64,000 nt of DNA from Escherichia coli (GCF_024298765.1 NZ_CP101210.1), one strand, 5' to 3'. Counted from the stretch's first letter, positions 51,558 to 58,208 are shown. The notes: a model not told the origin generated them from the letters alone. Made by a program: numbers and translations.

Positions 51558-52217
51558 ATGAGCGAACAAATCACGTTTGCCACCAGCGATTTTGCCAGTA
51601 ACCCGGAACCACGTTGCCCCTGCATTTTGCTGCTGGATGTTTCTGGCTCGATGAGCGGCAGACCTATTAATGAACTTAACGCCGGATTGGTGACCTTTCG
51701 TGATGAACTGCTTGCCGATCCGCTGGCTTTAAAAAGAGTGGAACTCGGCATTGTGACGTTCGGCCCGGTGCATGTGGAACAACCCTTTACCAGCGCCGCT
51801 AACTTTTTCCCGCCCATCCTGTTTGCCCAGGGGGATACGCCAATGGGGGCCGCCATTACCAAAGCCCTGGATATGGTTGAAGAGAGGAAACGTGAGTACC
51901 GCGCAAATGGTATTTCGTATTATCGCCCGTGGATTTTCCTGATCACCGATGGCGCTCCAACCGATGAGTGGCAGGCTGCCGCCAACAAAGTGTTTCAGGG
52001 GGAAGAAGATAAGAAGTTTGCCTTCTTTTCCATCGGTGTTCAGGGGGCGGATATGAAGACGCTGGCACAAATCAGCGTTCGTCAGCCTTTGCCTCTGCAA
52101 GGATTACAATTCCGTGAACTGTTTAGCTGGTTATCCAGTTCGCTGCGTTCGGTTTCCCGCTCCACGCCGGGAACGGAAGTTGTGCTGGAAGCGCCAAAAG
52201 GCTGGACGTCAGTGTGA
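51558..52217 (+). CDS. yegL: von Willebrand factor A (vWA) domain protein YegL
   Basis: 219 aa; MIDAS-like DxSxS motif ([11 protein letters not shown]). Confidence 0.85.
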
Positions 52218-52975
52218 GCTGGCGTCTGGTTTATGCATCCGCTGTTGGAACGTCGCACATTAGCGCTGATTTACCTTGTCAGGATGCCTGCCAGATGCAG
52301 GTTGCCTGGTTAAACGATCAGCAACCATTACTGGTGATGTTTCTTGCTGATGGTGCAGGCAGCGTCTCGCAGGGTGGCGAAGGCGCGATGCTCGCCGTCA
52401 ATGAAGCGATGGCTTATATGTCGCAAAAAGTGCAGGGTGGGGAATTGGGGCTTAATGATATCCTCGCCACGGATATTGTGCTGACTATTCGTCAGCGACT
52501 TTTTGCCGAGGCAGAGGCCAAAGAATTAGCGGTTCGCGATTTTGCCTGCACGTTTATGGGATTGATTTCATCGGCTAATGGCACCTTGATTATGCAGATT
52601 GGCGATGGCGGCGTGGTGGTAGATTTCGGTCATGGTCTGCAATTGCCGCTTACGCCGATGGTGGGTGAATATGCCAATATGACGCACTTCATTACCGATG
52701 AAGATGCCGTTTCCAGACTGGAAACTTTCACCAGCACTGAGCGTGTGCATAAAGTTGCAGCATTTACGGATGGTATCCAGCGACTGGCGTTAAATATGTT
52801 GGATAATTCTCCACATGTGCCTTTCTTTACCCCGTTTTTCAATGGACTGGCGTCAGCAACGCAGGAACAACTCGATTTATTACCTGAATTGTTAAAGCAG
52901 TTTTTGTCCAGCCCAGCGGTAAACGAGCGTACCGATGATGATAAAACGTTAGCACTGGCGCTGTGGGCAGAGTGA
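52214..52975 (+). CDS. pphC: PP2C-family Ser/Thr protein phosphatase PphC (YegK)
   Basis: 253 aa; start overlaps the yegL stop. Confidence 0.8.
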
Positions 52976-53039
52976 GTTTCTCATGGCGGTTGAAGACAAC
53001 AATTCAACCGCCAGTTTAAACAATAAATATAACGGCTGA

Positions 53040-54897: not shown

Positions 54898-56844
54898 ATG
54901 AAGACAAATATAAAAGTATTTACATCAACAGGTGAAATGACCACTCTCGGTCTTGAACTGGGCAAAGGCGGTGAAGGCGCGGTTTATGATATCAATGAGT
55001 TTGTCGATAGCGTCGCCAAGATTTATCACACGCCGCCACCCGCCTTAAAACAGGACAAACTTGCCTTTATGGCTGCGACAGCTGACGCGCAATTGTTGAA
55101 TTATGTCGCCTGGCCGCAGGCAACGCTTCACGGTGGACGAGGCGGAAAAGTTATCGGTTTTATGATGCCAAAAGTTTCTGGTAAAGAACCGATTCATATG
55201 ATCTATAGCCCGGCACATCGTCGTCAACGTTACCCTCATTGGGCGTGGGATTTTCTACTCTATGTTGCGCGCAATATTGCTTCATCTTTTGCTACGGTTC
55301 ACGAGCACGGGCACGTCGTGGGTGACGTAAACCAGAACAGTTTTATGGTAGGTCGCGACAGCAAAGTGGTGTTGATTGATAGCGACTCCTTTCAGATTAA
55401 CGCCAATGGCACACTGCATTTATGCGAAGTCGGCGTGTCGCATTTTACGCCGCCAGAGCTACAAACCTTGTCGTCATTTGTCGGCTTTGAACGCACAGAA
55501 AATCACGATAATTTTGGCCTTGCGTTGCTGATTTTTCACGTCTTGTTTGGTGGCCGGCATCCTTATTCTGGTGTGCCGCTTATCTCTGATGCGGGTAATG
55601 CGCTGGAGACGGATATTACCCATTTCCGTTATGCCTACGCGTCAGATAATCAGCGACGTGGTTTAAAACCGCCGCCACGATCGATTCCGCTATCGATGTT
55701 ACCGAGTGATGTTGAAGCCATGTTTCAGCAGGCATTCACGGAAAGTGGCGTGGCAACCGGGCGTCCGACGGCTAAAGCGTGGGTAGCGGCACTTGATTCT
55801 CTGCGCCAACAGTTAAAGAAATGTACCGTTTCGGCAATGCATGTTTATCCCGGTCATTTGGCTGACTGCCCATGGTGTGCGCTGGATAATCAAGGTGTTA
55901 TCTATTTTATTGATCTCGGCGAAGAGGTCATTACCACCGGCGGGGATTTTGTGCTGGCAAAAGTCTGGGCGATGGTGATGGCGTCAGTAGCACCGCCAGC
56001 ATTGCAACTGCCATTACCCGATCATTTCCCACCGACTGGCAGGCCGCTTCCTTTAGGCCTGTTACGGCGCGAATACATCATTCTGCTTGAGATCGCACTG
56101 TCAGCATTATCGCTGCTGCTTTGCGGCCTTCAGGCAGAACCGCGTTATATTATTTTGGTTCCTGTGCTGGCGGCTATCTGGATTATTGGCAGTCTGACAA
56201 GCAAAGCGTACAAAGCAGAAGTTCAGCAACGCCGTGAGGCATTTAATCGTGCGAAAATGGACTATGACCATTTAGTCCGCCAGATCCAGCAGGTAGGCGG
56301 CCTGGAAGGTTTTATCGCCAAACGGACGATGCTCGAAAAAATGAAGGACGAAATTCTCGGGTTACCGGAAGAAGAGAAACGCGCTCTGGCAGCACTTCAT
56401 GACACTGCAAGGGAACGGCAGAAGCAGAAGTTTCTGGAGGGATTTTTTATTGATGTTGCCTCTATTCCCGGCGTTGGCCCTGCGCGTAAAGCGGCGTTAC
56501 GGTCTTTTGGTATTGAAACAGCCGCAGACGTTACCCGTCGTGGCGTTAAGCAAGTGAAAGGGTTTGGCGACCATCTGACCCAGGCGGTTATCGACTGGAA
56601 AGCGAGCTGTGAACGCCGTTTTGTGTTCAGGCCGAATGAAGCGATAACGCCAGCAGACAGACAAGCGGTAATGGCGAAAATGACCGCCAAACGACATCGG
56701 CTGGAATCGACGTTGACTGTCGGCGCGACAGAGTTGCAGCGATTCCGCCTTCATGCTCCAGCACGGACCATGCCGTTGATGGAACCTTTACGTCAGGCGG
56801 CAGAAAAACTGGCTCAGGCGCAGGCAGATTTAAGCCGCTGCTGA
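54898..56844 (+). CDS. yegI: Eukaryote-like Ser/Thr protein kinase YegI
   Basis: 648 aa; N-terminal kinase-like domain (glycine-rich LGKGGEGAVY, catalytic-loop-like HVVGDVNQNSFMV), central TM segments, C-terminal domain. Confidence 0.8.
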   Translation: MKTNIKVFTSTGEMTTLGLELGKGGEGAVYDINEFVDSVAKIYHTPPPALKQDKLAFMAATADAQLLNYVAWPQATLHGGRGGKVIGFMMPKVSGKEPIHMIYSPAHRRQRYPHWAWDFLLYVARNIASSFATVHEHGHVVGDVNQNSFMVGRDSKVVLIDSDSFQINANGTLHLCEVGVSHFTPPELQTLSSFVGFERTENHDNFGLALLIFHVLFGGRHPYSGVPLISDAGNALETDITHFRYAYASDNQRRGLKPPPRSIPLSMLPSDVEAMFQQAFTESGVATGRPTAKAWVAALDSLRQQLKKCTVSAMHVYPGHLADCPWCALDNQGVIYFIDLGEEVITTGGDFVLAKVWAMVMASVAPPALQLPLPDHFPPTGRPLPLGLLRREYIILLEIALSALSLLLCGLQAEPRYIILVPVLAAIWIIGSLTSKAYKAEVQQRREAFNRAKMDYDHLVRQIQQVGGLEGFIAKRTMLEKMKDEILGLPEEEKRALAALHDTARERQKQKFLEGFFIDVASIPGVGPARKAALRSFGIETAADVTRRGVKQVKGFGDHLTQAVIDWKASCERRFVFRPNEAITPADRQAVMAKMTAKRHRLESTLTVGATELQRFRLHAPARTMPLMEPLRQAAEKLAQAQADLSRC

Positions 56845-56855
56845 GCCATTTTCTT

Positions 56856-58208
56856 TTAACGAAACACCACTTCCGCCCAGCGTGCCAGCCCGGCGGTGAC
56901 GGAGCCAAAGTCATCGCCGCCTGCAATCGGAATTCCCGGCAACTGTTCTGCCAGCGCTTTTTTAATCAGCGGCGAACGGGCGCTACCGCCGGTCAGGTAG
57001 ATAACGTCCGGTTTTTCCTGGGCGTTATCCAGGGCCAGTTGCACCTGTTCCAGAATCCGCGCCAGTGGCTGGCTGAGGGCGCTTTCCAGCCCTTGCTGGC
57101 TAATCAGCGTAGCCAGTTCATCGCTGATAAACGGCAGTGAGGCGCGGGTTTCCGCTACGCTTGAAAGAGCAATTTTGCACTCTTCTGCGCTACGCACCAG
57201 GCGATAGCTTAAACGCTGACGCCAGACTTTCTGTAGCAGGGCCACTTTTTCCGGTTCGCGGGCATCGCGTACCAGATCGTTAAGCAGACGACCGTTGGCA
57301 CTACTGTAGAAATCACTCTGCGCAGGTACGTCGTTGATGGCAACCGCATTCCACCACGGCAGAATCGGCAGGGCGATGCCTTTTTCGGTTTCGCCACCCA
57401 TGCCCAGTAACGGCATCAGGTTTTTAAACGCCAGTGCGATGTCCAGATCGTTACCGCCAATACGGCAACCACTGTGACCCAGCAGGCTGGCTTCACGATC
57501 GAGACGCGAACGCCACTGCGGTCCCATCAGCAGCAATGAACAGTCAGTCGTACCACCGCCGATATCCACCACCAGCACCCGTTTTTCTTCCTGCAAGGTG
57601 GCTTCGTAATCCAGCCCAGCCGCGACCGGCTCGTACTGGAATACCACGTCCCTGAATCCGGCACGCTTCGCCGCGCGTTCCAGAATCCCTTGCGCCTGGG
57701 CGTTTGCTTCATCGCCGCCCAGCCCCTGGAAGTTGATCGGGCGACCAATCACCGCCTGAGTAATCGCTTCTGGCAGCTGCGCCTGCGCCTGCTGGCGAAT
57801 GTGCAACATCATTGCGCAGACCAGATCCTCAAACAGCGCTACCTGCTGCGGTTTTAAGCCGCTGGCACCGAGGAACGATTTTGGTGATTTCACAAACCAC
57901 ACTTCTTCTGGATCATCAATGTACTGTGCCAGTGAGGAAAGACCGAACTGCACGCTTTTCGCCGTAACATCGATATCTTCTTCGCGGTTATAACGAATCG
58001 CCCGACGTAACAGCGCCTGCGTTTCATCGTCGTCTGCCGGAACATCATGATGGCGGTACAGCCATTCACTTACTGCTTCACGCGTTGGCGCGCAAAGCAT
58101 TGAAGGCAGCAGCGTGCTGTCGTTTTCCATTTTCAGTAATTGCGGTTTACCGTCACGCATGACCGCCACTGAACAGTTTGCTGTACCGTAATCAAAACCA
58201 ATAAACAC
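56856..58208 (-). CDS. yegD: Hsp70/actin-fold ATPase YegD
   Basis: 450 aa; phosphate-binding motifs FDYGTANCSVAV and VVDIGGGTTD. Confidence 0.85.
   Translation of the reverse strand: MFIGFDYGTANCSVAVMRDGKPQLLKMENDSTLLPSMLCAPTREAVSEWLYRHHDVPADDDETQALLRRAIRYNREEDIDVTAKSVQFGLSSLAQYIDDPEEVWFVKSPKSFLGASGLKPQQVALFEDLVCAMMLHIRQQAQAQLPEAITQAVIGRPINFQGLGGDEANAQAQGILERAAKRAGFRDVVFQYEPVAAGLDYEATLQEEKRVLVVDIGGGTTDCSLLLMGPQWRSRLDREASLLGHSGCRIGGNDLDIALAFKNLMPLLGMGGETEKGIALPILPWWNAVAINDVPAQSDFYSSANGRLLNDLVRDAREPEKVALLQKVWRQRLSYRLVRSAEECKIALSSVAETRASLPFISDELATLISQQGLESALSQPLARILEQVQLALDNAQEKPDVIYLTGGSARSPLIKKALAEQLPGIPIAGGDDFGSVTAGLARWAEVVFR

Follow-up and report, generated by a model that had tools for sequence, protein, structure and literature searches.

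A yegL-pphC-yegI triad of Escherichia coli with a TerY-P-like kinase, phosphatase and vWA architecture

Escherichia coli, the best-studied bacterium, has a single pair of Hanks-type kinase and PP2C phosphatase, YegI and PphC. Its physiological role has been a question since 2018-2020: what does the pair do, and which of its neighbours belong to it? We address this question in a stretch of 64,000 nucleotides of Escherichia coli DNA (GCF_024298765.1, NZ_CP101210.1; the whole stretch is called the window), in which yegL, pphC, yegJ, yegI and yegD occupy positions 51558-58208. The initial annotation of this locus had grouped the five genes as one cluster of unknown biological role. Our analysis showed that the conserved unit is the three-gene set yegL-pphC-yegI and that YegD and YegJ are bystanders. 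In architecture, and by our comparison probably also in working, this triad is like the TerY-P (TerY-phosphorylation) type. An unknown role is a fair description for E. coli, but the architecture is of a named kind, with anti-phage activity in other members (PMC11090510, PMC7699616, PMC10889362).

The five open reading frames (ORFs) lie exactly where the initial annotation had placed them, and RefSeq gives the same gene names in near-identical E. coli loci detected by megablast:

51558-52217, plus strand: yegL, ORF of 219 amino acids (aa)
52214-52975, plus strand: pphC (yegK), ORF of 253 aa
53040-53501, minus strand: yegJ, ORF of 153 aa
54898-56844, plus strand: yegI, ORF of 648 aa
56856-58208, minus strand: yegD, ORF of 450 aa, convergent with yegI

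The surrounding 49.3-59.2 kb of the window is the mdtA-ibs/sib-yegL-pphC-yegJ-yegI-yegD-alkA-dgcE region of E. coli. The locus is already known, consisting of textbook-annotated genes with published enzymology. Its yegL-pphC is 100% identical and its yegI 99.9% identical to strain TUM18780; yegI is 98.2% identical to that of K-12 MG1655, so the window comes from a natural E. coli lineage and not from K-12 itself.

To define the conserved unit, 80 loci were fetched from one-genome-per-species contigs by means of conserved YegI peptides and then searched with the window proteins. The genes yegL, pphC and yegI were found in the same order and on the same strand in about 72 of the 80, which is essentially all of the loci with enough flanking sequence, confirming the kinase-phosphatase-vWA triad as a recurring architecture. 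The triad was present in Beta-, Gamma- and Alphaproteobacteria, Planctomycetota, Desulfobacterota, one cyanobacterium and several archaea of the genus Methanoregula. The triad was incomplete on short contigs and in two Thiotrichales genomes that have the kinase alone. The grouping of five genes therefore held for three of them, which co-occur tightly, but not for the other two: YegD adjoins the triad only in Escherichia, and YegJ is in no triad locus outside E. coli. A conserved fourth gene was rejected as well, since clustering of 1,243 flanking ORFs gave lineage-specific synteny only, with genes for a GspE-like ATPase, an RNase II/R-like protein, an ABC transporter, RecQ, acetyl-CoA synthetase and SNase.

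Two side observations concern these loci. The solo kinases of the two Thiotrichales loci (L057, 9998-11788; L058, 5875-7620) are shorter YegI-like proteins without YegL or PphC; a fused vWA-PP2C gene upstream was considered and rejected, the upstream gene in L057 encoding glycogen phosphorylase. In several Burkholderiales loci, the gene directly upstream of yegL encodes a secreted SNase-like protein (thermonuclease; L084, 7932-8474; L088 and L089, 7917-8501; L006, 7920-8462), and an ORF of about 70 aa precedes this gene in turn. The SNase-like gene may be an accessory specific to the lineage, or its position may simply reflect synteny.

YegI is a divergent Hanks-fold Ser/Thr kinase. It had no Pfam Pkinase match, and a sequence search of the PDB gave no match even with a 13-sequence profile. 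The AlphaFold2 model (predicted local distance difference test score, pLDDT, 88.6) places the kinase domain at about aa 1-303 and superposes on the kinase domains of PknB, PknA and BRAF (Foldseek, probability 1.0, TMt 0.65-0.71). The bilobed fold with its glycine loop, VAIK lysine and catalytic and Mg-binding aspartates is present, and G22/G24/G25, K41, D143, D161 and the TPPEL motif are invariant. Previous studies identified YegI as an active, Mn2+-preferring kinase in which HRD and DFG are replaced by VGD...S and DSD (Rajagopalan and Dworkin, 10.1101/819920), and PhoA-LacZ topology analysis made it an inner-membrane protein that crosses the membrane twice, with both termini cytoplasmic (10.1101/819920). 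YegI autophosphorylates on activation-segment serines with second-order kinetics, and PphC removes these phosphates (10.1101/303594, 10.1101/819920). The description of YegI as a eukaryote-like Ser/Thr kinase with transmembrane segments is thus borne out by the modelled fold together with the published kinase activity and topology (10.1101/819920).

The part of YegI that follows the kinase domain consists, in order, of a C-H-C-C knuckle, a membrane hairpin, a coiled coil, two helix-hairpin-helix (HhH) motifs and a long terminal helix. Three of these parts were mapped on the window:

55822-55878, plus strand: putative zinc knuckle of YegI, C309-x5-H315-x8-C324-P-W-C327, directly after the kinase domain
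56068-56217, plus strand: membrane helical hairpin of YegI, about aa 391-411 and 420-440, helices in the model
56446-56616, plus strand: paired HhH motifs of YegI, IPGVGPARKAAL and VKGFGDHLTQAVI, about aa 517-573

At the knuckle, the 43 homologues, bacterial and archaeal alike, all keep C309, H315, C324, W326 and C327, and the model shows two short strands; the knuckle would be expected to bind metal. Hydrophobic 19-residue windows corresponding to the hairpin are kept in all 43 homologues. The HhH pair gave a weak match to Pfam HHH_5 (E=0.0025), the motif is kept across homologues, and the source names of the homologues include 'helix-hairpin-helix domain-containing protein'. In the AlphaFold2 model a coiled coil precedes the HhH motifs and a C-terminal helix of about 60 residues (aa 585-647) follows them. 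These motifs are presumed to bind DNA.

YegL gave a Pfam VWA match (1.6e-9), and its AlphaFold2 model has the vWA fold (pLDDT 87). The metal ion-dependent adhesion site (MIDAS) is complete, with D27, S29, S31, T94 and D131 invariant in 38 homologues. YegL is also the slowest-evolving member of the triad: its identity to homologues from other phyla is 54-85%, compared with 30-61% for YegI and 32-64% for PphC. A sequence search of YegL against solved structures gave no match, and in the structure search the nearest solved structures to the model were generic vWA and integrin I domains. The PADLOC TerY model reached only E=0.013 on YegL, over residues 90-169. The COG name is 'TerY/YegL'. A disordered Ser-rich tail of YegL was also considered as a phospho-acceptor; this idea was weakened because in the model S193, S195 and S200, which are invariant, belong to the last vWA helix, and only S202/T203 fall in the less confident tail.

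PphC matched Pfam PP2C_2 at 3.2e-50 and has the conserved metal-binding motifs DGAG, GDGG, TDG and DDDKT. It is an active PP2C-like phosphatase (there called YegK) that dephosphorylates YegI (Rajagopalan and Dworkin, 10.1101/303594), so that its assignment as a PP2C phosphatase agrees with both the profile match and the published activity. The GTG start of pphC overlaps the yegL stop codon as GTGA. A 4-nt overlap of the two genes was found in 33 of 56 homologous loci, and the translational coupling of the vWA protein to PphC, noted in the initial annotation for this locus, is therefore a conserved feature.

Two E. coli strains are of note for pphC. In strain E69 (locus L031, 2980-3732), the encoded PphC has 84% protein identity to that of the window, and the synonymous divergence (dS) is 0.80, against 0.23 for the neighbouring yegL and 0.29 for yegI; judged from these values, the E69 pphC looks like a recombined or foreign allele. 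In the near-identical strain PEC148 (locus L001, 6971-8931), an ISKpn26/IS5 element has inserted into pphC, and the annotation gives the gene as two pseudogene fragments.

Outside Escherichia, the triad was found on mobile DNA and beside defence genes. It is part of a Tn7-like element of Chromobacterium, together with AbiH and a KAP NTPase, and it is carried by Pseudomonas megaplasmids and a conjugative Sphingomonas plasmid; the YegI family is also on Cupriavidus and Ralstonia replicons, and its Pseudomonas megaplasmids include pQBR103. One triad locus lies in an island with BrxR, JetB (BrxR/Wadjet), McrA-like, SLFN-helicase and MazG genes, another beside a type I restriction-modification system and Mrr, and a third near a C5 methyltransferase; a further one has Avs2, a type I restriction enzyme and RtcR-CARF, with Gabija GajA/GajB directly upstream. 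These contexts of the YegI family fit a conflict system. In phage genomes the family was essentially absent, and three unannotated metagenomic contigs encode a vWA protein of 34-45% identity.

The YegI family comprises 6,557 representatives at 50% identity with E<=1e-30. Some members (740-1158 aa) share the kinase part only and have different, longer C-termini. On the conjugative plasmid of Sphingomonas panacis (L093, 5923-8082), the kinase of the triad has 719 aa, more than YegI, and its annotation includes a C4 zinc finger of topoisomerase type; it is an example of swapping of the putative C-terminal nucleic-acid-binding module in this family. On the Pseudomonas fulva megaplasmid pVIM-24 (L092, 2542-4240), the triad lies just downstream of genes for a UmuD-like S24 peptidase and a Y-family polymerase, and also near TraR/DksA and HU genes.

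The neighbour yegD could be separated from the triad. YegD is a full-length member of family NF008673 (810 bits, cut-off 331) and matches only the nucleotide-binding domain of DnaK, as seen with the corresponding DnaK structures in the PDB. It is an actin/Hsp70-fold ATPase, as had been proposed, consisting of the nucleotide-binding domain only, and it is not a canonical chaperone because it is without a substrate-binding domain. YegD as a triad component was rejected: neither tblastn nor phmmer found a match to it beside any non-Escherichia triad, and yegD loci without the triad exist. Orthologues of 88-90% identity are common in Salmonella and Citrobacter, where the locus is alkA-yegD-ibs-mdtA. 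Co-occurrence in other genomes had been set in advance as a check on yegL, pphC, yegI and yegD; the first three do co-occur, and yegD, which is triad-less in these two genera, does not follow them. Thus, yegD is the ancestral enterobacterial neighbour, and the triad appears from this gene order to be an acquisition of about 3.3 kb, made horizontally by the Escherichia lineage, beside the older yegD and between it and the ibs/mdtA genes.

YegJ belongs to Pfam DUF2314 (2.9e-25). Its residues 1-19 (53445-53501, minus strand) begin with MKKILLMLSLLFFTTAGFS, followed by E, and resemble a Sec signal peptide, so the protein is likely to carry one. YegJ was reported to bind the RNase E catalytic domain in two-hybrid and pull-down experiments (Gopel et al. 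2026, PMC13232886), and its overproduction made the envelope leaky and strongly induced yegD (PMC13232886). The published interaction was obtained with clones starting at residue 16, and YegJ is listed there as cytoplasmic. Because of these clones and the signal-like N-terminus, the interaction may not reflect the normal residence of mature YegJ.

The distribution of yegJ was determined in 5,426 complete E. coli genomes searched by megablast, the comparison set for all E. coli counts given here. It is present in 1,916 of them (35%) and missing from 65%. Rajagopalan and Dworkin described pphC and yegI as overlapping (ATGA) in B strains and O157:H7, with yegJ intervening in K-12; the spread over 1,916 genomes goes far beyond 'K strains only'. 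In yegJ-less E. coli the three triad genes are directly contiguous. Compared with these alleles, about 790 bp of AT-rich DNA (the yegJ cassette; GC content 0.30-0.41 vs 0.50 for the window) replaced about 55 bp at the pphC/yegI junction.

Within the species the triad is nearly universal, with yegL-pphC in 5,407 and yegI in 5,401 of the genomes. For yegL-pphC, identity to the window was at least 95% in 1,978 genomes and 90-95% in 3,437, and the size of the first band roughly equals the count of yegJ-positive genomes. Between yegJ-positive and yegJ-negative haplotypes, the ratio of nonsynonymous to synonymous divergence (dN/dS) was 0.02-0.18 for the three genes, which indicates purifying selection; the triad genes are therefore maintained. 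Positive selection on pphC or yegI between divergent E. coli haplotypes was considered, and none was seen (dN/dS 0.1-0.18).

In the window itself, two pieces of DNA interrupt the operon: the yegJ cassette, with its gene on the opposite strand, and an IS5-family insertion sequence. The two insertion sequences and the nearby antitoxin RNAs are as follows:

49801-51243, plus strand: IS150, 1443 bp, with a CCC target duplication and IS3-family transposase matches
53536-54730, plus strand: IS5-family element, 1195 bp, with a TTAG target duplication at 53532-53535 and 54731-54734
51263-51411, minus strand: SibA antitoxin RNA (Rfam RF00113), opposite ibsA at 51278-51337 on the plus strand
49488-49630, minus strand: SibB antitoxin RNA (Rfam RF00113), opposite ibsB at 49503-49559 on the plus strand

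Both insertion sequences are full-length elements with terminal inverted repeats, a transposase and a target-site duplication. The IS5 transposase matches NF033581 at 367 bits, and the element is inside the cluster between yegJ and yegI and upstream of both, with 34 bp between it and the yegJ start and 167 bp between it and yegI; at this junction it was found in only 2 other genomes. IS150 is outside the cluster, between the two Sib/Ibs copies, and its junction is identical in 75 of the genomes. The statement that two insertion sequences flank the cluster is inaccurate for this reason, IS5 being internal. With the yegJ cassette and IS5 between pphC and yegI, yegI is transcriptionally uncoupled from yegL-pphC, and the ancestral co-translation of phosphatase and kinase is lost in the window strain. 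A promoter and terminator scan of 51240-55000 gave sites no commoner than in shuffled sequence. According to the literature, a mutation given in print as 'yegl' (apparently yegI) became fixed by a sweep in population Ara-1 of the long-term evolution experiment, and yegI mutations recur in long-term evolution (Rajagopalan and Dworkin). Taken together, the IS5 of the window, the pphC insertion of PEC148 and the yegI mutations of long-term evolution suggest that the locus is repeatedly hit or inactivated.

The toxin-antitoxin genes and insertion sequences are unrelated neighbours and not components of the system. The two SIB_RNA matches (RF00113) scored 149.5 and 142 bits, and the ibs ORFs were read from the opposite strand. 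Each Sib RNA is antisense to a hydrophobic ibs ORF of 18-19 codons, as in Ibs/Sib type I toxin-antitoxin pairs; the reported presence of such a pair is correct, but there are two copies and not one. The IS150 insertion point is in the loop of a GC-rich hairpin directly 3' of SibA (49790-49800 / 51244-51262), and the element may disturb SibA termination. Further along, dgcE (59238-62556, minus strand) has a single-base insertion near 62143 relative to E. coli PEC148, and two overlapping ORFs result, one of 177 aa (62023-62556) and the other of 1007 aa (59238-62261); this reflects either a sequencing error or a genuine frameshift that makes dgcE a pseudogene.

What, then, does the triad do? We favour, with confidence about evenly divided, the explanation that yegL-pphC-yegI is a TerY-P-type conflict (anti-phage or anti-mobile-DNA) phosphorylation switch and not a housekeeping pathway with YegD. 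Active-site or MIDAS residues are kept across phyla in all three proteins, and the triad genes are coupled in translation. In such a switch, PphC would keep YegI off in the uninfected cell. Once the membrane-tethered HhH module bound DNA, or some other cue of infection arrived, YegI dimers would be brought together, trans-autophosphorylation would then outpace PphC, and active YegI would phosphorylate its targets. The MIDAS metal of YegL might bind an acidic or phosphorylated ligand, with YegL acting as adaptor or effector, and the output would touch DNA transactions. Such an output would explain the DNA damage on overproduction of YegL or YegI alone: in an overexpression screen for DNA-damage-promoting proteins, YegL was among the strong hits and YegI among those with increases of at least 5-fold (10.1101/354589).

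Several points weigh against a conflict switch. The presence of the triad in about 99.6% of E. coli genomes under plain purifying selection is unusual for a defence system. Among the PADLOC-DB v2 models, no family matched YegL or PphC at E<=0.01, and YegI gave only weak MkoA and PD-T4-6 kinase matches. The literature reports no phage phenotype for E. coli yegLKI, and Rajagopalan and Dworkin found no conditions under which the operon is expressed (10.1101/303594, 10.1101/819920). Strong defence genes lay within about 7 kb in about 8 of 22 annotated non-Escherichia loci, a count without a matched control, and several non-Escherichia triads are in housekeeping surroundings. DNA binding by the HhH module and YegI substrates beyond YegI and PphC are putative.

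The main rival explanation is housekeeping signalling, in which YegI and PphC would regulate physiology (stationary phase, envelope or proteostasis) together with YegD and YegJ. It is consistent with the retention of the triad in >99.5% of E. coli genomes under purifying selection, with the yegI mutation that swept in the long-term evolution experiment, and with the strong induction of yegD by yegJ overexpression; yegI expression has also been seen weakly in stationary phase. However, YegD and YegJ never accompany the triad outside Escherichia, yegD loci of Salmonella and Citrobacter are triad-less, and most E. coli genomes do without yegJ. The patchy spread across phyla, with archaea, plasmids and a Tn7-like element among the carriers, is at odds with a lineage-specific role, and we regard this explanation as rather doubtful.

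That the locus is a decaying remnant in the window strain, non-functional as a system because yegI is uncoupled by the yegJ cassette and IS5, is distinctly unlikely: all three ORFs are full-length with intact catalytic and MIDAS residues, the dN/dS values between yegJ-positive and yegJ-negative haplotypes are low (0.02-0.18), and the yegJ-positive haplotype is kept in 1,916 genomes. The points in its favour are the position of opposite-strand yegJ and IS5 between pphC and yegI, the IS5-family element inside pphC of another strain, the lack of detectable expression in K-12 type strains in the literature, and the apparent benefit of yegI loss of function in the laboratory. We consider very unlikely a metal- or tellurite-type stress sensor, in which the YegL MIDAS would sense divalent metal or oxyanion stress and gate the kinase-phosphatase pair. 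The TerY-like vWA domain with its invariant MIDAS and the Mn2+ preference of YegI would suit such a sensor, and PMC11090510 quotes a metal-sensing switch hypothesis for TerY-associated triads; yet no ter or metal-resistance genes recur beside the triad in the 80 loci, the kinase tail is predicted to be nucleic-acid-binding and not metal-sensing, and the PADLOC TerY model barely matches YegL.

The conflict-switch explanation can be extended, more speculatively, to the proposal that this subfamily is a distinct and widespread TerY-P-like branch of immunity. Membrane-tethered YegI would sense entering foreign DNA (phage ejection or conjugation) via its HhH pair, and the phosphorylation signal would be held by PphC and read by the YegL MIDAS. 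We consider this extension unlikely; if it is true, the only Hanks-type kinase of E. coli is an immune sensor missed by current defence-finding tools. The question is in any case narrowed to a three-gene module that is mobile across phyla, lies near defence systems and has a putative DNA-binding tail, and a family that PADLOC-type models currently miss is flagged. The result is no surprise for specialists in the comparative genomics of conflict systems.

Compared with known systems, the triad shares with the PknB/PstP, PrkC/PrpC and PpkA/PppA pairs a co-encoded kinase and phosphatase, reversal of autophosphorylation by the phosphatase, and the bilobed kinase fold. In contrast to these pairs, YegI is without HRD, DFG, a Pfam Pkinase match and an extracytoplasmic sensor domain, and its link to a separate vWA protein is obligate. 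PpkA has its vWA domain as a fused, periplasmic part. The archaeal ArnA/ArnB system (FHA plus vWA, with kinases ArnC and ArnD) likewise combines a vWA protein with Ser/Thr kinases and a phosphatase, and ArnB is a kinase substrate. The structure search with the YegL model returned ArnB at rank 27 (8s05_B), but yegL-pphC-yegI has no FHA partner and the structural match is generic vWA similarity. For YegD, the relevant family is NF008673 of the Enterobacteriaceae, in which the link to the triad is confined to Escherichia.

The TerY-P triad was reportedly defined by Anantharaman, Iyer and Aravind in 2012, and Gao et al. are said to have described TerY-P as a stand-alone anti-phage system in 2020. 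It consists of a vWA protein similar to TerY, a PP2C phosphatase and a Ser/Thr kinase whose C-terminus carries a nucleic-acid-binding module. This module is a zinc ribbon in type II/III-A CoCoNuT and an OB fold in stand-alone systems active against T7-like phages (PMC11090510, PMC7699616). A TerY-P variant of P. aeruginosa protects against Autographiviridae, and most cells survive (PMC10889362). The present triad differs in its kinase tail, where the putative zinc knuckle of YegI is combined with the membrane hairpin, the coiled coil and the HhH pair in place of an OB fold or zinc ribbon, and in that yegL-pphC-yegI is core in E. coli and not accessory. The two have in common a vWA protein with a MIDAS, a PP2C phosphatase and a Ser/Thr kinase encoded by adjacent, co-directional genes in the same order (in the window, yegJ and IS5 precede the kinase gene), as well as a patchy distribution, association with mobile elements and frequent location beside other defence genes. 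The kinase may likewise carry a C-terminal nucleic-acid-binding module, in YegI the C-H-C-C knuckle and the predicted HhH pair.

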